This document shows, one piece after another, positions 22,892 through 30,639 of a stretch of DNA of 30,750 nt; positions within the stretch are counted from its first letter, which is position 1; each line of letters begins with the position of its first letter. The DNA lies in the UHGV virus genome UHGV-1468954; one strand, 5' to 3'. The notes below the pieces were generated by a model that was not told the origin of the DNA, did not search any database, and saw only the letters and a program-made list of their open reading frames with translations. The stretch comes from a virus. A program made the position numbers and the translations under genes.

Positions 22892-23098
22892 TTAACTCAC
22901 AAAACGCCACGCCACTTTTGCTACGACAACAGGCATAACACCGATAATCACCCACAGAAAAATGCTACCGAAAAGCACACCCACCAGGTCTTTACCTTCG
23001 CCTACCAACCGGACAAAACAGCCAGCAACCACAATGAACGTCGCCACCATCCACAGAGCACCGAGAAGCCTCAATGCAGAGAAAATCAACTCAACCAC
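22892..23098 (-). CDS. Small membrane protein (68 aa, two predicted TM helices)
   Basis: Hydrophobic throughout; apparent GTG start with GGGAGAG upstream. Confidence 0.4.
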   Translation of the reverse strand: MVELIFSALRLLGALWMVATFIVVAGCFVRLVGEGKDLVGVLFGSIFLWVIIGVMPVVVAKVAWRFVS

Positions 23099-23111
23099 GA
23101 TTTACTCTCCC

Positions 23112-23145
23112 CCAAATAAAAAGGCCTGCGATTACCTGCAGGCCT
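23112..23145 (-). terminator. tR2-like intrinsic terminator downstream of ren
   Basis: Perfect 8-bp inverted repeat AGGCCTGC-N8-GCAGGCCT, followed on the minus strand by TTTTATTT. Confidence 0.6.
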
Positions 23146-23170
23146 GTTATTAGCTCAGTGATGTAGATGG

Positions 23171-23461
23171 TCATCTTTTAACTCCATATACCGCCAATAT
23201 CCGTTTCATCGTGGCACTCTGGCGACACTCCTTAAAAATCAGGTTCGTGCTCATCTTTCCTTCCCGTTCTTCCTTGGTAGCAAACCGGTAATACACCGTT
23301 CGCCAGACCTTACCTTCGATAACCAGAAGACCTGCCCGTGCCATTTTAGCCGCGGCCTGATTTATGCTGGTTACTGTTGCGCCTGTTAGCGCGGCAACGT
23401 CCGGCGCACAGAAGCTATTATGCGTCCCCAGGTAATGAATAATTGCCTCTTTGCCCGTCAT
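23171..23461 (-). CDS. ren: Ren
   Basis: 96 aa; position after P and similarity to lambda Ren (memory). Confidence 0.8.
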   Translation of the reverse strand: MTGKEAIIHYLGTHNSFCAPDVAALTGATVTSINQAAAKMARAGLLVIEGKVWRTVYYRFATKEEREGKMSTNLIFKECRQSATMKRILAVYGVKR

Positions 23462-24159
23462 ACACTTGCTCCTTTCAGTCCTAACTTAGCTTTAATTTCT
23501 GCGATCTTCGCCAGCGCCTGAACACGATTTAGAGGTCTGCCGCCCATGACAGGAAGTTGTTTTACTGGTTCAGGTATCGTCTCACCACGGTTAATTCGCG
23601 CTGTCATACAGGTCAGTTCATCGGCAGCCTTGCGTCGTAATTCCGCGTCAGTCAGCGCATTGGCCCGCATGTTCTGGTACAGGTTGGTAACCAGCCAGTA
23701 GTGCGCGTTCGATTTCCACGGATAAGACTCTGCATCCGGATACAGGCCTCGCTTCCGGCAATACTCGTAAACCATATCAACCAGCTCGCTGACGTTTGGC
23801 AGTCCGGCGATAACGGATGCTTCTTCCCGGCACCATGCAACAAACTGCCCGGGTGATGGCAGAAATGGTCGATTCTGCCGACGGGCTACGCGCATTCCTG
23901 CGTTAACCTGTTCCATTGTGGTGATCCCGTTTTCCCGGAAAGCCAGAACCCACTGGCGGCGGATTTCATTCAGTTCGTTCTGGTCACGGTTAGCCAGACT
24001 CGCCGGGAAAGTTGCCAGTAACTGGCTGAACACACCGTTGATGATCTGCGCTACCTGCTGTACCTGCGGCTTTTCGTCGTACTGTTCCGGCATGTTGTTG
24101 GCGATCCGACGCATCTGCTCACGGTCAAAATTAACCATCTGTGCGGCGATGTTTTTCAT
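23458..24159 (-). CDS. P: Replication protein P (DnaB helicase loader)
   Basis: 233 aa; MKNIAAQMVNFDREQMRRIANNMPEQYDEKPQVQQVAQIINGVFSQLLATFPASLANRDQNELNEIRRQW... matches lambda P. Confidence 0.9.
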   Translation of the reverse strand: MKNIAAQMVNFDREQMRRIANNMPEQYDEKPQVQQVAQIINGVFSQLLATFPASLANRDQNELNEIRRQWVLAFRENGITTMEQVNAGMRVARRQNRPFLPSPGQFVAWCREEASVIAGLPNVSELVDMVYEYCRKRGLYPDAESYPWKSNAHYWLVTNLYQNMRANALTDAELRRKAADELTCMTARINRGETIPEPVKQLPVMGGRPLNRVQALAKIAEIKAKLGLKGASV

Positions 24160-25055
24160 AAATCCACCCCGTAAATCCAGTCAGTGTTTGTCAGGTCGAG
24201 TTTTGGTTTGCTAGCTGTCACGCCTGCCTGTTGCTTGTTACGGTTGATTTCGAGTTGAGTCCACTTGTCGCGGAGTTTGGCCGGACTCAGCACGTTACCG
24301 GACCAGAAGTTGTCCTGGCATGCCCAGCGGAACAGCACGCACATGTCGCGGTGGTTACGTCCGTCACGTTCACGCATCAGGCGGATATCGTTAGCCCACC
24401 CTGCAAAATTTGGTTTTCTGGCTGATGGCGCGATGGTCTTCACCATGTCAAACATCCACTCTGCGGCGGTCAGGTCTTCTGCTGTCCCCCACTTGCTGCC
24501 GCTCTGAATTGCAGCATCCGGTTTCACCACAGAAAGGTCGTTTTCTGGCTGGTCAGAGGATTCGCCAGAATTCTCTGACGAATAATCTTTTCTTTTTTCT
24601 TTTGTAATAGTGTCTTTTGTGTCCCCCTGTTTTGAGGGATAGCAATCCCCCAATTTGAGGGATGTTTTATCCCTCGTTTTAGGGGATTTTCCCTCGTTTT
24701 GAGGGATACACCATTCTGAGATGTTTTTATTTGGTCCAAACATGCCGCCTTGCTGCTTGATAATATTCATTCTGACGAGTTCTAACTTGGCTTCATTGCA
24801 CCGTTTGACGGGTAACTTTGTAATCTCGCTAAGTTGAGAATCGGTGATTCTGTCCATTGGTTTATTCCATCCATAGGTTTTACGCAGAATGGCAAGCAGC
24901 ACTTTAAACTGTCGCTTGGTCAGATCTGCGCCTGAATAAGCCTCAAGCAGCATATTTGATAGTCTGGCGTAACCATCATCGAGATCTGCCACATTACGCT
25001 CCTGTTTGGCAAAGTTACCTCTGTAGAAGTTGAGTATTTTTGCTGTATTTGTCAT
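24156..25055 (-). CDS. O: Replication initiator O
   Basis: 299 aa; MTNTAKILNFYRGNFAKQ...; contains the ori iterons in its mid-region as in lambda. Confidence 0.9.
   Translation of the reverse strand: MTNTAKILNFYRGNFAKQERNVADLDDGYARLSNMLLEAYSGADLTKRQFKVLLAILRKTYGWNKPMDRITDSQLSEITKLPVKRCNEAKLELVRMNIIKQQGGMFGPNKNISEWCIPQNEGKSPKTRDKTSLKLGDCYPSKQGDTKDTITKEKRKDYSSENSGESSDQPENDLSVVKPDAAIQSGSKWGTAEDLTAAEWMFDMVKTIAPSARKPNFAGWANDIRLMRERDGRNHRDMCVLFRWACQDNFWSGNVLSPAKLRDKWTQLEINRNKQQAGVTASKPKLDLTNTDWIYGVDL
24585..24706. other. Lambda-type replication origin: four 17-18 bp iterons plus adjacent AT-rich region, inside O
   Basis: Iterons TCCCCCTGTTTTGAGGGA, TCCCCCAATTTGAGGGA, TCCCTCGTTTTAGGGGA, TCCCTCGTTTTGAGGGA at about 24622-24706; the AT-rich tract at about 24585-24620 is on the P-proximal side. 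Confidence 0.85.
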
Positions 25056-25064
25056 AATGACTCC

Positions 25065-25141
25065 TGTGGATTGATCCAGTAATGACCTCAGAATTCCATC
25101 TGGATTTGTTCAGAACGCTCGGTTGCCGCCGGGCGTTTTTT
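25065..25141 (+). ncRNA. oop: OOP-type antisense RNA (about 77 nt) covering the cII 3' end
   Basis: pO: TTGAGT (25030-35), 17-nt spacer, CATAAT (25053-58). Terminator stem CGCTCGG / CCGGGCG (one G-U pair) with a T6 run at 25116-25141. The predicted length equals lambda OOP. Confidence 0.6.
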
Positions 25142-25381
25142 ATTGGTGAGAATCGAAGCAACTTGTCGTGCCAATCGAGCCATGTCGTCGTCAACGACAC
25201 CCCATTCAAGAACAGCCAGAAGCATTCCCATTTTTGGGATGAAGCTGTCTTTCCATCGTGAAATTTGCGATTCATTAATCCCTAACGCGTCGGCAACCTT
25301 TCGCTGACCACGTACAGCAATTCGATTCAGGATGTTGCTTGTAATTGCATTCGCTTTCTTGCGAGTACTTGTAAGTTCCAT
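25088..25381 (-). CDS. cII: CII transcriptional activator; chimeric (divergent N-terminal/HTH region, lambda-like C-terminal part)
   Basis: Track ORF 25088..25468; start ATG 25381 gives 97 aa. C-terminal ...SQISRWK...LLAVLEWGVVDDDMARLARQVA.ILTNKKRPAATERSEQIQMEF matches lambda CII; residues 1-45 differ. Confidence 0.8.
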   Translation of the reverse strand: MELTSTRKKANAITSNILNRIAVRGQRKVADALGINESQISRWKDSFIPKMGMLLAVLEWGVVDDDMARLARQVASILTNKKRPAATERSEQIQMEF

Positions 25382-25439
25382 ATGTAAGTATTTCCTTAAC
25401 AAATAAGAAGTTATGCGCATCAACTTATGCGCGTTGTAT

Positions 25440-25482
25440 TCCCGCATTTCGGCGGGAATGAGGACCATGACTGTTAAAGAGC
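25440..25482 (-). promoter_or_regulatory. nutR (boxA plus boxB) between cro and cII
   Basis: Minus strand boxA GCTCTTTAACA (25472-82) and boxB hairpin UCCCGC-CGAAAU-GCGGGA (25440-57); the boxB is identical to that at nutL. Confidence 0.6.
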
Positions 25483-25490
25483 GGTGTTAC

Positions 25491-25691
25491 TTATGCAGTT
25501 GTTTTTTTGTTGCTTGGGAAGGGCTTTATTTCTTCCGCATAAACGCTTCCATCAGCGTTTATAGTTAAAAAAATATTTCGGCCTGCATGAATGGCCTTGT
25601 TGATCGCGCTTTGATATACGCCGAGATCTTTAGCCGTCTTGGTTTGACCAAAGCGCATTGCATAATCTTTCAGGGTTATGCGTTGTTCCAT
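25491..25691 (-). CDS. cro: Cro repressor
   Basis: 66 aa; [64 protein letters not shown] matches lambda Cro apart from about 2 residues. Confidence 0.9.
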
Positions 25692-25717
25692 ACAACCTCC
25701 TTAGTACATGCAATCAT

Positions 25718-25785
25718 TATCACCGCTAGAGGTAAAATAGTCAACACGCACGGTGTTAGATATTTATCCCTTGCGGTGATAGATT
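25718..25785. promoter_or_regulatory. Right operator oR1-oR2-oR3 with divergent pR (minus) and pRM (plus)
   Basis: oR1 25718-34 TATCACCGCTAGAGGTA; oR2 25742-58 CAACACGCACGGTGTTA; oR3 25765-81 TATCCCTTGCGGTGATA. pR is TTGACT-17-GATAAT on the minus strand; pRM is TAGATA-17-TAGATT with a leaderless cI start. Confidence 0.85.
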
Positions 25786-25788
25786 TAA

Positions 25789-26505
<717 letters not shown>

Positions 26506-26571
26506 TATATGTGAAATGCATATATTGATATAAATGCAGCAATATCAAATAGTTAAAAGGTTATATTTTTA

Positions 26572-26952
26572 ATGAATGATCTTGATAAGAAAAAGTACGA
26601 CCAAGTTATTGATTCTGTGAACTTCGCCCTTAGATCGTTGTCAGAGTTATTCGAAGCCCATGGAATGCATGGGATGTATGATCTAACGAATCCAAGCCTT
26701 GATGAGCTAAAATTAGTGTTTACAAGGATGAAAAACGGAGTTGACTCTATTGCTCAAAGCTTTGAGCATATGGTAGAGACAGCAAAGGATATGGATGCCG
26801 CAAGTGCAAGCATAAATGTTATGAACATCAAGCAAGGATTGATGTATGCTGAATCACTATTGCTTGCTGTAGAGAAATTAGACTATGATAAATGTGTGGA
26901 AGCAAATACGCAGATAAAAACCCACGATCTTCCACCAACCCAATGGCCTTAA
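26572..26952 (+). CDS. Hypothetical protein (126 aa) at the rexA/rexB position downstream of cI
   Basis: Same strand as cI, 66 bp downstream after an AT-rich spacer; visibly AT-rich coding sequence; predicted soluble and helical; no family recognised. Confidence 0.6.
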   Translation: MNDLDKKKYDQVIDSVNFALRSLSELFEAHGMHGMYDLTNPSLDELKLVFTRMKNGVDSIAQSFEHMVETAKDMDAASASINVMNIKQGLMYAESLLLAVEKLDYDKCVEANTQIKTHDLPPTQWP

Positions 26953-27021
26953 TAGTAAATCAAGATTTCATATAGTCTATTTGAACTAGGCTAGTACCAT
27001 AAAATAAACCGAGGAAACGCA

Positions 27022-27123
27022 ATGAAAACCATGTCCACTCTGCACAAAGATGCAATGACCCTGAGATCTCTCATTAACGAGATTCTGGCTCGCTCGTCAG
27101 CACACACCAAAAAAGCTGCATAA
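27022..27123 (+). CDS. Small ORF (33 aa) downstream of orf126
   Basis: MKTMSTLHKDAMTLRSLINEILARSSAHTKKAA; GAGGAA 5 nt upstream of the ATG; followed at 10 nt by an intrinsic terminator. Below the ORF-track size cut-off. Confidence 0.4.
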   Translation: MKTMSTLHKDAMTLRSLINEILARSSAHTKKAA

Positions 27124-27132
27124 TGCCTACAT

Positions 27133-27160
27133 AACCCGGCCTCATCGCCGGGTTTTCTTT
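27133..27160 (+). terminator. Intrinsic terminator closing the cI-orf126-orf33 unit (tImm-like)
   Basis: AACCCGGC-CTCATC-GCCGGGTT followed by TTCTTT. Confidence 0.65.
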
Positions 27161-27316
27161 GCCTCACGATCGCCCCACCTAAAAACACATAACCAATTGT
27201 ATTTATTTGAAAATTAATAGATACAACTCACTAAACATCGCAATTCAGATCTCTCGATCACCTTCCCAATCCACACAACCCTGCAAAAAATAAATCTATA
27301 TAAAAAACATACAGAT

Positions 27317-27379
27317 AACCATCTGCGGTGATAAATTATCTCTGGCGGTGTTGACACACATACCACTAGCGGTGATACT
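27317..27379 (+). promoter_or_regulatory. Left operator oL3-oL2-oL1 and promoter pL
   Basis: oL3 27317-33 AACCATCTGCGGTGATA; oL2 27337-53 TATCTCTGGCGGTGTTG; oL1 27361-77 TACCACTAGCGGTGATA. pL is TTGACA (27351-56), 17 nt, GATACT (27374-79). Confidence 0.85.
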
Positions 27380-27425
27380 AAACACATCAGCAGGACGCTG
27401 GCAGCCAAACGGAACAGATTGGCAG

Positions 27426-27466
27426 GCTCTTTAACATTGATGGGATTGTCCCGCCGAAATGCGGGA
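27426..27466 (+). promoter_or_regulatory. nutL (boxA plus boxB) in the pL leader
   Basis: boxA GCTCTTTAACA (27426-36); boxB hairpin TCCCGC-CGAAAT-GCGGGA (27449-66). Confidence 0.6.
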
Positions 27467-27573
27467 ACCAAAGAGTAGTTGGCTTTGGGGTGACGTGAAG
27501 TGCAGCTGCACGACGGCAACCGGAAGATAAGCACCCGGCGCGTCACCGCCAAAGTCAATCATCGGAGGTCAAC

Positions 27574-27879
27574 ATGACAGTCGTCATTACATATCTGGCT
27601 GACGATAACACCAGAAATCGCCGCAGAGCACGCAGACAGGCTCAACGTGAGCAGGCAATGCAAGAACAGCGACTGGCGCGAAAAATTGCGCTAAAGCTCT
27701 CTGGTTGCGTCAGAGCAGATAAAGCAGCATCACTCGGAAGCCTTCGCTGCAAGAAGGCAGAAGAAGTCGAGCGTAAACAGAATCGTATTTACTACCGCAA
27801 GCCACGCAGTGAAATGGGTGTGACCTGTTCAGGCCGCCAGAAGCAACGCGGAAAATCAATTCCAGCTTATTACGATTGA
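27574..27879 (+). CDS. N: N-family transcription antiterminator (not lambda-type N-terminus)
   Basis: 101 aa; GGAGG RBS; arginine-rich motif NTRNRRRARRQAQREQ near the N-terminus; C-terminal ...VTCSGRQKQRGKSIP resembles the lambda N C-terminus (memory); first gene downstream of pL/nutL. Confidence 0.7.
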   Translation: MTVVITYLADDNTRNRRRARRQAQREQAMQEQRLARKIALKLSGCVRADKAASLGSLRCKKAEEVERKQNRIYYRKPRSEMGVTCSGRQKQRGKSIPAYYD

Positions 27880-27887
27880 GGTGAGCC

Positions 27888-28025
27888 ATGCTCAAGAAAG
27901 TCAAACGCCGACTTTACAAAGAAGGTAGATATTCATGCCATTTGCCAAAATGCGACACAGCAAAATGGAGTGTCGATGATTGGTGTAACTGGATAGATAG
28001 ATACGGAACTTGGTGGGATAAATAA
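27888..28025 (+). CDS. Small Cys/Trp-rich ORF (45 aa) immediately after N
   Basis: MLKKVKRRLYKEGRYSCHLPKCDTAKWSVDDWCNWIDRYGTWWDK; its GAGGTGA RBS overlaps the N stop codon. Below the ORF-track cut-off. Confidence 0.4.
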   Translation: MLKKVKRRLYKEGRYSCHLPKCDTAKWSVDDWCNWIDRYGTWWDK

Positions 28026-28079
28026 CAGGTAACTTAAGCGGATTTATTTTCGCAGCAAACCACTTATTTGAGGTGAGAT

Positions 28080-28343
28080 ATGGACGAGAAAATTAAATCA
28101 TTGAAGCCAGGAATTGTTATCAGAGACATAAGTGGTTATTACGATACAGAGACATATGATATTTTATATGTGCATGCAGATGGAAAATGTCAGTATTCGA
28201 ACGACATTTTTAATAATAAAGGCGATGCCGAAATTGCTGCCACCACAGTTAATAAAGAGCTCGTAGCTAACGAGTCGTGGGATTATTTTATGCCATCATC
28301 CACTTCTATGAACTGGAAAGTGGTTTTGTACATTCCATCATAA
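28080..28343 (+). CDS. Hypothetical protein (87 aa), early-left operon
   Basis: GAGGTGA RBS 3 nt upstream of the ATG; no family recognised; sits in the position held by ea10/ral in lambda. Confidence 0.5.
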   Translation: MDEKIKSLKPGIVIRDISGYYDTETYDILYVHADGKCQYSNDIFNNKGDAEIAATTVNKELVANESWDYFMPSSTSMNWKVVLYIPS

Positions 28344-28384
28344 TTGTAGCTGCCGTTCAAAAATGAAAGTAAATCTAACATCAC

Positions 28385-28408
28385 AGGCCGCATAGTCGGC
28401 CTTCTTTT
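28385..28408 (+). terminator. Intrinsic terminator (tL2-like, first of a tandem pair)
   Basis: AGGCCG-CATAGT-CGGCCT followed by TCTTTT. Confidence 0.55.
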
Positions 28409-28527
28409 GGCATAAACAACAGAATAAACACTGCACTGTGTATTCATTCCAACGAGTGAATACACTGAGCAATGTCGCTCGTAACTAAACAGGAGCCGAC
28501 TTGTTCTGATTGTTGGAAATCTTCTTT

Positions 28528-28553: not shown

Positions 28554-28614
28554 ATGCATACCAATAACGCTTCACTCGAGGCGTTTTTCGTTATGTATAA
28601 ATAAGGAGCACACC

Positions 28615-28755
28615 ATGCAATATGCCATTGCAGGGTGTCCTGTTGCTGGCTGCCCTTCCGAATCTTTACTTGAACGAATCACACGTAAATTACGTGATGG
28701 ATGGAAACGCCTTATCGACATACTTAATCAGCCAGGAGTTCCCAAGAATGGATAA
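28615..28755 (+). CDS. cIII: CIII-like protein (46 aa, C-terminally shorter than lambda CIII)
   Basis: Internal start of track ORF 28510..28755 with an AAGGAG RBS; MQYAIAGCPVAGCPSESLLERITRKLRDGWKRLIDILNQPGVPKNG matches lambda CIII residues 1-46 (memory). Confidence 0.75.
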   Translation: MQYAIAGCPVAGCPSESLLERITRKLRDGWKRLIDILNQPGVPKNG

Positions 28756-28861
28756 AACACTTATGGCTATCCAGACTAAATTCACTATCGCCACTTTTAT
28801 TGGCGATGAAAAGATGTTTCGTGAAGCCGTAGAAGCCTACAGAAAATGGAGGTCAAAATGA
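28748..28861 (+). CDS. kil: Kil-like small protein (37 aa)
   Basis: MDKTLMAIQTKFTIATFIGDEKMFREAVEAYRKWRSK; starts 8 nt before the cIII stop, as kil follows cIII in lambda. Similarity to lambda Kil is from memory only. Confidence 0.5.
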   Translation: MDKTLMAIQTKFTIATFIGDEKMFREAVEAYRKWRSK

Positions 28862-29046
28862 TTCCGGTAGAACTGGCGAAAACCCCAGAGTTAAGCCGAT
28901 TAAAAAGAGAGTATCACATTGCTGAGGCTCGTTACTGGCGTAAAGCGGGAGATAAATCAAAGAAACAACTTTGCTTATGGCAGGCACAAAGAGAGCGCAT
29001 GAATGAGCGCAAATTTCTTTCCGCCCCATCCGAATTACCATTCTGA
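28858..29046 (+). CDS. Hypothetical basic protein (62 aa)
   Basis: Start ATG overlaps the kil-like stop as ATGA, with GGAGG 6 nt upstream; not Gam-like. Confidence 0.45.
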   Translation: MIPVELAKTPELSRLKREYHIAEARYWRKAGDKSKKQLCLWQAQRERMNERKFLSAPSELPF

Positions 29047-29054
29047 GGTGAATT

Positions 29055-29735
29055 ATGGGAACTGCGACATTAATACTCGGTGAGTCTGGCACCGGAAAAT
29101 CAACCAGCATGAGAAATATCAATCCAGAGGAAGCAATACTTATAAAACCAATAGGCAAGCCGCTACCATTTAAATCAAAAGACTGGCTTGCATGGGATGC
29201 CAGAGCAAAAAAAGGAACCGTAGTTACCACTGACAAATGGGACGTAATAGTTGCTGTAATTAAGCGTGCTCACGAATACGGAAAAAGAATCGTTATTGTT
29301 GATGACTTCCAGTATGTGATGAGCAATGAGTTTATGCGCCGCTCAGAAGAAAAATCGTTTGATAAATTTACTGAGATAGGCCGCCACGCATGGGAGGTGA
29401 TTAAGGCTGCACAGGATGCACCTGATGACCTGAGAGTCTATTTTCTTGCGCACACAGAAGAAACCCCTATGGGGCGCGTGAAAATGAAAACTATCGGCAA
29501 AATGCTGGACGAGAAAATCACTGTCGAAGGCATGTTTACTATAGTTCTTCGCACCCTTACCCGTGATGACCAGTTCTTTTTCACCACGAAAAACAACGGT
29601 GCAGACACTGTTAAATCCCCAATGGGAATGTTTGATTCCAATGAGATTGATAACGATCTCTCTTTTGTCGATGCCACTGTTTGTGATTACTACGGCATCA
29701 ATAATGTTCATCAAATTAAGGAAAACGCCGCATGA
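29055..29735 (+). CDS. Sak4-like RecA-fold ATPase (AAA_24-type), putative recombinase
   Basis: 226 aa; Walker A ILGESGTGKST at the N-terminus, Walker B RIVIVDDF; occupies the recombination slot of the pL operon. Confidence 0.6.
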   Translation: MGTATLILGESGTGKSTSMRNINPEEAILIKPIGKPLPFKSKDWLAWDARAKKGTVVTTDKWDVIVAVIKRAHEYGKRIVIVDDFQYVMSNEFMRRSEEKSFDKFTEIGRHAWEVIKAAQDAPDDLRVYFLAHTEETPMGRVKMKTIGKMLDEKITVEGMFTIVLRTLTRDDQFFFTTKNNGADTVKSPMGMFDSNEIDNDLSFVDATVCDYYGINNVHQIKENAA

Positions 29736-30319
29736 GCAACGTGATTTTTACTTATAACGAAGAAGCAGCACTGACAGCAGGGCAAGGTGGTTTTATTAAC
29801 GAAACTGGCGCTCATATCATTACCATTACTGAAGCAGAACTCAAGCAATCAGAAAAAGGCGCAAAATTTATTGAGTTTTCTGGCGAATCCGACGACGGAC
29901 GTAAAATCCAATATCTTAGCGTCTGCGTTCAGAAAAATGACGGAACGGAAAACAAATTTGGCGCAAATGTCGTTCACGCCATGATGGGGTGTGCCGGGAT
30001 TGGGCAGTTAACGCAACATATGATTTCCGTCAGTAAATTTGTTGCACCTGAATTTCATGGAAAGAAAATCGGGTTGGTGCTCCAGAAAGTATTAACCACA
30101 AACAAAAAGACTGGCGCAGACAGCTACCAGATGGAAATACGCATCCCGTTTATTGCACAAACTGGTCAAACCCTTAAAGAAAAGGCGGAAGGCAAGCAAC
30201 CAGAAACTATCGCCAACATGGTTGCCAGTCTCAAAGATAAAGACAATCGCTCTAAAAACGTAATCCAGAATCATGCAGATGATTATGGTTACAGCCAGAA
30301 CGATTACCCTCCTTTCTGA
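29732..30319 (+). CDS. Hypothetical partner protein (195 aa) with acidic/aromatic C-terminal tail; candidate ssDNA-binding partner
   Basis: 4-nt overlap with the ATPase gene; C-terminus ...HADDYGYSQNDYPPF resembles the acidic tail ending in Phe of phage SSB-like proteins. The function is inferred. Confidence 0.4.
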   Translation: MSNVIFTYNEEAALTAGQGGFINETGAHIITITEAELKQSEKGAKFIEFSGESDDGRKIQYLSVCVQKNDGTENKFGANVVHAMMGCAGIGQLTQHMISVSKFVAPEFHGKKIGLVLQKVLTTNKKTGADSYQMEIRIPFIAQTGQTLKEKAEGKQPETIANMVASLKDKDNRSKNVIQNHADDYGYSQNDYPPF

Positions 30320-30342: not shown

Positions 30343-30639
30343 ATGCCAGCGCCTCTGTATGGTGCGGATGACCCGCGCAACTGCTCCGGTAGCTCCAAGG
30401 CGGAGGTGCTGGAAAATATCAAAAACAATTTCGACACGTTTATTGCCCTGACACCAGAAACAAAAGCAGAACGGATGTACCGACGCGATATACAGCTCGC
30501 GTTAAAAGATGAGAGGGACCGAACAAACGAAACAGCAATGCGACCGTTGCGAAAAGCGACAATAGACAAATTCCCTGAATATATCGACCCGCGCCTGCGT
30601 AATTACCGCTCACGCTATGGCGCTATCAGTAATGACTGA
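30343..30639 (+). CDS. Hypothetical protein (98 aa)
   Basis: Same-strand ORF continuing the early-left operon; no family recognised. Confidence 0.4.
   Translation: MPAPLYGADDPRNCSGSSKAEVLENIKNNFDTFIALTPETKAERMYRRDIQLALKDERDRTNETAMRPLRKATIDKFPEYIDPRLRNYRSRYGAISND

Follow-up and report, generated by a model that had tools for sequence, protein, structure and literature searches.

The 30,750-nucleotide viral sequence analyzed here (UHGV-1468954; the window) carries, downstream of cIII and kil in its leftward early operon, four genes in the order hkaM-sak4-ssb-abc2. There is little doubt that they form a homologous-recombination ('Rec') module of the type found in coliphage HK620 and that the host element is a lambdoid, P22/HK620-like phage; nothing in the analysis contradicts the HK620-type assignment. 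The identities and order of the genes, their motifs, the C-terminal tail and fold class of the single-strand DNA binding protein (SSB), and the conservation of the sak4-ssb gene pair are established here. The pair itself is already known, near-identical proteins having been characterized biochemically in 2018. The features of the region are as follows.

28602-28660: match to the Rfam family Lambda_thermo (cIII thermoregulator RNA), 84.1 bits against a gathering score of 50
28615-28755: cIII, 46 aa, upstream of the module
28748-28861: kil, 37 aa, upstream of the module
28858..29046, plus strand: 62-aa homologue of hkaM, opening the HK620-type Rec module
29055..29735, plus strand: sak4, 226 aa, ATG start; by analogy, a core-only RecA-like, ATP-dependent single-strand annealing protein
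29079..29102, plus strand: Walker A motif GESGTGKS, Sak4 residues 9-16, found by motif search
29289..29306, plus strand: Walker B motif IVIVDD, Sak4 residues 79-84, found by motif search
29732..30319, plus strand: ssb, 195 aa, HK620-type phage SSB (HkaK, 'SSB-2'; DUF669 / N4 gp45-like)
30299..30316, plus strand: C-terminal tail NDYPPF of SSB, residues 190-195, which would recruit Sak4
30343..30639, plus strand: abc2, 98 aa, anti-RecBCD protein 2, diverged allele, identified with Pfam and PHROG

The genome-wide context of the module is that of a pL transcript, with the order N, cIII, kil, and then the Rec module. Translational overlaps link consecutive genes: the kil stop and the hkaM start overlap in ATGA, and so do the sak4 stop and the ssb start, which share 4 nt of the same sequence. 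A megablast search of the region against phage records reached HK620 (AF335538), whose genes cIII-kil-hkaM-hkaL-hkaK-hkaJ have the same order and the same overlaps, with module products of 62, 226, 195, and 98 aa. Phage and prophage records matching the module number in the hundreds, which, together with a nucleotide identity to HK620 of 97 to 98%, argues that sak4 and ssb are real, conserved genes and not chance open reading frames (ORFs). The original prediction, made from the letters alone, had placed an ATPase of 226 aa and a partner of 195 aa ending in NDYPPF, overlapping by 4 nt, after cIII and kil. Both ORFs are in the ORF list at exactly the coordinates proposed, the second ending in SQNDYPPF, and the position in the operon was right, but the 62-aa hkaM homologue lying between kil and the ATPase gene had been overlooked.

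The sak4 product is identical to HK620 HkaL/Sak4 at 225 of 226 positions (99.6% by BLASTP), the lone change being D43 for E43, and the nucleotide identity is 98.4%; this near-complete identity to a characterized protein settles the assignment. As predicted, it is a Walker A/B ATPase of the Sak4 (AAA_24) type: it scores 30.2 bits against Pfam AAA_24, for which the gathering score is 27, matches PHROG 2872 'Sak4-like ssDNA annealing protein' over residues 1-220 of 226 (E = 3.9e-108), and possesses both motifs without any extra domain. Walker A is also kept in diverged Sak4 relatives encoded at three of the loci described below (L034, L084, and L086). A PDB sequence search at E <= 1 returned no relatives of Sak4, and the single-sequence AlphaFold model, with a pLDDT of only 44.7, was too poor for a fold search. 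The RecA/RadB-like core fold of Sak4 is a claim of Lopes 2010 and Hutinet 2018, as these are quoted in PMC5928155.

What the pair does is known from HK620. There, Sak4 and SSB have both been purified and studied, and Sak4 needs ATP for the binding of ssDNA and the annealing of complementary strands (Hutinet et al. 2018, PMC5928155). In oligonucleotide recombineering, Sak4 alone gave a 15-fold increase over background, and Sak4 with SSB, or the whole module, an increase of ~210-fold; SSB alone had no effect, and hkaM and abc2 brought no gain (PMC5928155). Because the only changes in the window pair are a single conservative substitution in Sak4 and four substitutions outside the tail of SSB, the same mechanism can be assumed for it with high confidence, and the window Sak4 would thus be an ATP-dependent, ssDNA-binding single-strand annealase. 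Experiments on HK620 proteins 98 to 99.6% identical to those of the window likewise let us expect, with high confidence, ATP-dependent annealing, stimulation by SSB, and dependence on the SSB tail. The idea that the two genes encode a two-component annealase is thus supported by 99.6% and 98% identity to a pair with demonstrated annealing activity (PMC5928155); that this very pair had already been studied was not recognized in the original prediction.

The 195-aa partner is 191/195 identical (98%) to HK620 HkaK, with a nucleotide identity of 96.9%. The substitutions relative to HkaK are I98, V100, E153, and I178; none lies in the tail, and NDYPPF is identical in the two proteins, so that the acidic/aromatic, SSB-like ending noticed in the original prediction is the tail of a known phage SSB. 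The protein matches PHROG 743 'single strand DNA binding protein' (E = 2.6e-65). For this protein, hmmscan against Pfam at E <= 10 found no family, DUF669 included, the profile of canonical bacterial SSBs (Pfam SSB family) was not matched, and a PDB sequence search yielded no relatives. As the Pfam DUF669 model misses the protein, its link to DUF669 and N4 gp45 rests on PHROG, on NCBI names, many of the collected homologues being called 'DUF669 domain-containing protein', and on fold matches.

The AlphaFold model of SSB (pLDDT 80, pTM 0.75) has a confident, beta-rich, OB-like core, followed by residues 177-195 that are predicted to be disordered, as their pLDDT is below 50. In a Foldseek search against viral models, DUF669 proteins and SSBs of N4-like phages came out on top, with E values from 3e-12 to 1e-7, the best value against predicted structures of DUF669 proteins being 3.3e-12. 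PrgE of plasmid pCF10 (PDB 8s4s) also belongs to the nearest matches of the model, and it and other OB-fold ssDNA-binding proteins are among the closest known to the window SSB. The fold matches to DUF669 proteins and N4-like SSBs agree with the relation of the HK620 SSB to N4 gp45 and DUF669 reported on the basis of HHsearch (PMC5928155). The fold of the partner had been called not obvious from sequence. On the evidence of the model, the protein has the OB-like core of SSBs of the DUF669 / N4 gp45 type and not the fold of gp2.5 or of a canonical bacterial SSB.

All 36 SSB homologues that were aligned end in F, and their tails, although variable in length, are acidic/aromatic. Removal of the last 6 residues of the HK620 SSB cut recombineering 10-fold and abolished the loading of Sak4 on SSB-covered ssDNA, and the NDYPPF tail of that protein has been compared with the tip of Escherichia coli SSB, DDDIPF (PMC5928155). 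With the functional need for the tail shown for HK620, we have high confidence that the identical tail of the window SSB would serve to recruit Sak4.

The 98-aa gene that closes the module had been left unassigned. Its product matches Pfam PF11043 'Anti-RecBCD protein 2' over its full length (E = 3.6e-36, residues 1-98, profile positions 1-97 of 97) and PHROG 656 'abc2 anti-RecBCD' (E = 1.9e-44), which identifies it as Abc2. It represents a diverged allele, 61/98 residues (62%) being identical to HK620 Abc2/HkaJ, with a nucleotide identity of 73.7%; identity to P22 Abc2 is also 62%. The 23-nt spacer between ssb and abc2 is 100% and ssb itself 96.9% identical to HK620, against 73.7% for abc2, which places a mosaic joint precisely at the abc2 start. 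Both alleles circulate behind the pair: in 46 IMG/VR loci abc2 is nearer to the window allele (78 to 97% identical) than to that of HK620, and an HK620/P22-type allele follows the same sak4-ssb pair in 26 others.

At the other end of the module, the hkaM product is identical to HK620 HkaM at 60 of 62 positions (97%; 95.8% at the nucleotide level) and matches PHROG 1723 (E = 1.3e-32), and Pfam has no family for it. Of two possible starts, the one at 28846, which would give a 66-aa ORF, and the ATG at 28858, we prefer the second, as it is preceded at a distance of 5 nt by a GGAGG ribosome-binding sequence and agrees with the HK620 annotation. NCBIfam gave no meaningful matches for any of the four module proteins.

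Linkage was assessed in 80 retrieved IMG/VR loci encoding SSB relatives. A Sak4 98.7 to 100% identical to that of the window is encoded directly upstream of SSB, with the same 4-nt overlap, in 69 of the 80, and every one of the 72 Sak4-bearing loci also has hkaM as well as abc2, the latter 27 nt downstream of ssb. The 4-nt overlap of sak4 and ssb persists in Salmonella and Xenorhabdus pairs that are only 52 to 66% identical. At least 80% of the module is present in 180 complete E. coli genomes and part of it in 1,332, and the Sak4-SSB pair is widespread in E. coli prophages, Stx-converting phages included.

Some of the retrieved loci depart from this arrangement. In L034 (1748-3588), and also in L036 and L061, a sak4 allele of 218 aa (52% identical) is combined with an unchanged ssb, and a gene for a 206-aa HNH endonuclease (PHROG 374, E = 2.3e-64) is located between the two, which looks like the insertion of a homing endonuclease inside the module. 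In L076 (1294-3588), and likewise in L077-L083, an SSB 87% identical to that of the window ends in WQYGGDNF instead of NDYPPF and is preceded by an annealase of the RecT family (PF03837) and an exonuclease of the YqaJ type (PF09588); these loci contain no Sak4, HkaM, or Abc2. The RecT/YqaJ neighbors and the GGDNF ending indicate that the same SSB family has been joined to a different annealase with a changed tail. Diverged SSBs linked to Sak4 end in DFDDDIPF in Xenorhabdus (L084, 3001-3615) and in DDDIDF in Salmonella (L086, 3001-3585). A strict covariation of the tail with the type of partner was considered and does not hold cleanly, as the Sak4-linked endings DDDIDF and DFDDDIPF differ from each other, next to the RecT-linked GGDNF.

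Outside the module, the window and HK620 are related in patches. The virion genes form an HK620-like, P22-type module that is 96 to 97% identical over ~10 kb (96.6% over 10.4 kb), whereas the immunity and replication region, which has lambda-type O/P/ren/cII families, differs: no DNA match to HK620 was found across 25609-27385, and only short matches at 77 to 98% identity across 22894-28422. Within the Rec module, the abc2 allele is diverged (62% for the protein, 73.7% for the nucleotide sequence), and Sak4 and SSB have one and four substitutions, respectively.

Several other features of the window were noted. A 126-aa ORF (26572-26952; PHROG 16322) lies directly downstream of, and on the same strand as, the 237-aa ORF of a cI-like repressor (25792-26505). 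PADLOC gave no match for it, and it does not resemble HK620 hkaS, the gene in the same place; in lambda, this place is occupied by rexA/rexB. The ORF is a candidate for a moron or an exclusion gene expressed in the lysogen. The stretch 27888-28343, flanked by N (27574-27879) and cIII, contains two small conserved ORFs, of 45 aa (PHROG 1871) and 87 aa (PHROG 33140), and no HK620 DNA match was found across 27766-28421, which holds both. Adjoining a gp16-like DNA-transfer gene, two divergent ORFs at 1019-2533 encode 347 aa (minus strand; PHROG 2384) and 154 aa (plus strand; PHROG 2651); neither has a PADLOC match, and the stretch 1013-4006 has no HK620 match. The cIII thermoregulator, whose Lambda_thermo match covers the cIII ribosome-binding site and start, was the sole match in an Rfam scan of the window, and a tRNA scan of the window returned none. 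Chi sites (GCTGGTGG) number 0 in the window against ~1 expected, a count that is not informative.

In the pL operon of lambda, the position downstream of cIII and kil is that of the Red genes gam-bet-exo. From kil to the window end, ~110 nt past abc2, the only ORFs are hkaM, sak4, ssb, and abc2, and no genes for Gam, a Bet/RecT-type annealase, or an Exo/YqaJ-type nuclease are present in this interval; within the window, this supports the proposal that the pair replaces Red. The two modules have the same overall task, i.e., the protection or processing of DNA ends in the face of RecBCD and single-strand annealing, and both lambda Red and the HK620 module are active in oligonucleotide recombineering (PMC5928155), yet Red has no protein homologous to those of the window module. 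For annealing, the window module would use an ATP-dependent protein with a RecA core, and lambda uses Bet, which is ATP-independent and Rad52-like; RecBCD would be modified by Abc2 in window-type modules and is blocked by Gam in lambda; and, unlike Red, window-type modules would require a dedicated phage SSB and lack a phage exonuclease.

The Rec module of P22, arf-erf-abc1-abc2, has the same four-gene layout with abc2 last, and the Abc2 proteins are homologous. Sak4 takes the place of Erf, a Rad52-like annealase, and SSB that of Abc1, and P22 Arf is unrelated to HkaM of the window type (PMC5928155). The HK620 Rec module, composed of Sak4, SSB-2, and Abc2 without a nuclease, has been catalogued among the types of lambdoid Rec modules; in that account, Sak4 is an annealase of the Rad51/RecA family, HkaK goes by the name 'SSB-2', and the anti-RecBCD function falls to Abc2 (PMC12315714).

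By analogy with these systems, the module may work as follows. Abc2 would bind the RecC subunit of host RecBCD and shift the activity of the enzyme from the destruction of phage DNA ends to their resection. The phage SSB, with its OB-like fold and as a presumed tetramer, would then coat the exposed single strands, and its disordered NDYPPF tail would recruit Sak4 to the SSB-covered DNA. The outcome would be recombination by single-strand annealing, and probably the formation of concatemers and the repair of ends, the role in concatemer formation within the phage being inferred only. P22 Abc2 binds RecC and alters RecBCD, as quoted in PMC5928155 and PMC12315714; with only 62% identity between the window Abc2 and this P22 protein, the role given to the former, including precisely how it affects RecBCD, is an extrapolation by homology.

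The physiological purpose of the pair could be a different one. If SSB were a replication SSB and Sak4 drove the switch to rolling-circle or concatemeric replication, the pair would serve mainly phage DNA replication, with recombination as a by-product, a reading to which we give a minority chance. It draws on other phages, in which mutants lacking functional sak or sak4 grow poorly and form few genome multimers and ssb mutants have similar, milder defects (Neamah et al. 2017, as cited in PMC5928155), as well as on the implication of lambda Rec-module genes in the theta-to-sigma switch (PMC12315714). Nevertheless, it concerns the physiological role and not the biochemistry, and is compatible with the annealase mechanism; moreover, sak4 and ssb occupy the Rec-module position beside abc2, away from the O/P replication genes at 23458-25055. 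It is distinctly less probable that either the SSB tails recruit host-SSB-binding proteins or HkaM or the Abc2 allele acts in the recombination of dsDNA ends. NDYPPF, and DFDDDIPF in the Xenorhabdus relatives, are similar to the host SSB tip and might attract proteins that normally bind host SSB; the Xenorhabdus tail holds the DDDIPF quoted for E. coli SSB (PMC5928155), which makes it conceivable that tails of this family act on such host proteins as well. With the RecT-linked relatives ending in GGDNF, the tail could be a swappable adaptor. The 62-aa HkaM, being tightly linked, or the diverged Abc2 allele might for their part have a role in dsDNA-end recombination.

That Sak4 is, in vivo, a true RecA/Rad51-like strand-exchange recombinase needing SSB, and perhaps HkaM, as cofactors is improbable. 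The protein has been described as a RecA-core homologue, and low-level recombination upon expression of sak4 and ssb in vivo is mentioned in PMC5928155, but HK620 Sak4, with or without its SSB, neither carried out strand exchange in vitro nor stimulated RecA (PMC5928155). An ATPase of defense, exclusion, or packaging with a P loop, next to an unrelated 195-aa accessory protein, can be practically dismissed. PGAP names sak4 'AAA family ATPase' and its neighbor 'hypothetical protein', and Sak4 matches PADLOC mad8 (22 bits) and PDC-S19 (15.9 bits), and the Pfam P-loop families Zot, ABC_tran, and RsgA, weakly. However, mad8 (residues 1-23) and most of the Pfam matches span little beyond Walker A, and PDC-S19 (residues 20-86) and Zot (residues 78-121) score only 15.9 and 12.7 bits. 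A defense function was rejected, as the two PADLOC matches are weak and partial and none is significant over the full length, and no packaging family rose above noise in the Pfam search. The protein shares 99.6% identity with an annealase that has been purified, and its gene adjoins abc2 in the Rec-module position of the early left region; it is a recombination family that it matches, where a non-recombination family would have spoken against the initial reading. We thus retain single-strand annealing by a Sak4-SSB pair.

Annotation is where the assignment has its practical value. In RefSeq E. coli genomes (H51-H62), PGAP calls sak4 'AAA family ATPase', three 'hypothetical protein' entries lie under the module match, and no feature under that match is named SSB or DUF669. 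Given these labels and a Pfam DUF669 model that misses the SSB, automated pipelines will keep showing the module as unknown. The module brings little new biology, since its central pair has been published as the Sak4-SSB system of HK620. A reading confined to the sequence correctly deduced a two-component annealase from the position, the Walker motifs, and the SSB-like tail. For the phage, the module would do the work of lambda Gam/Bet/Exo with a set of unrelated proteins that includes no phage nuclease.
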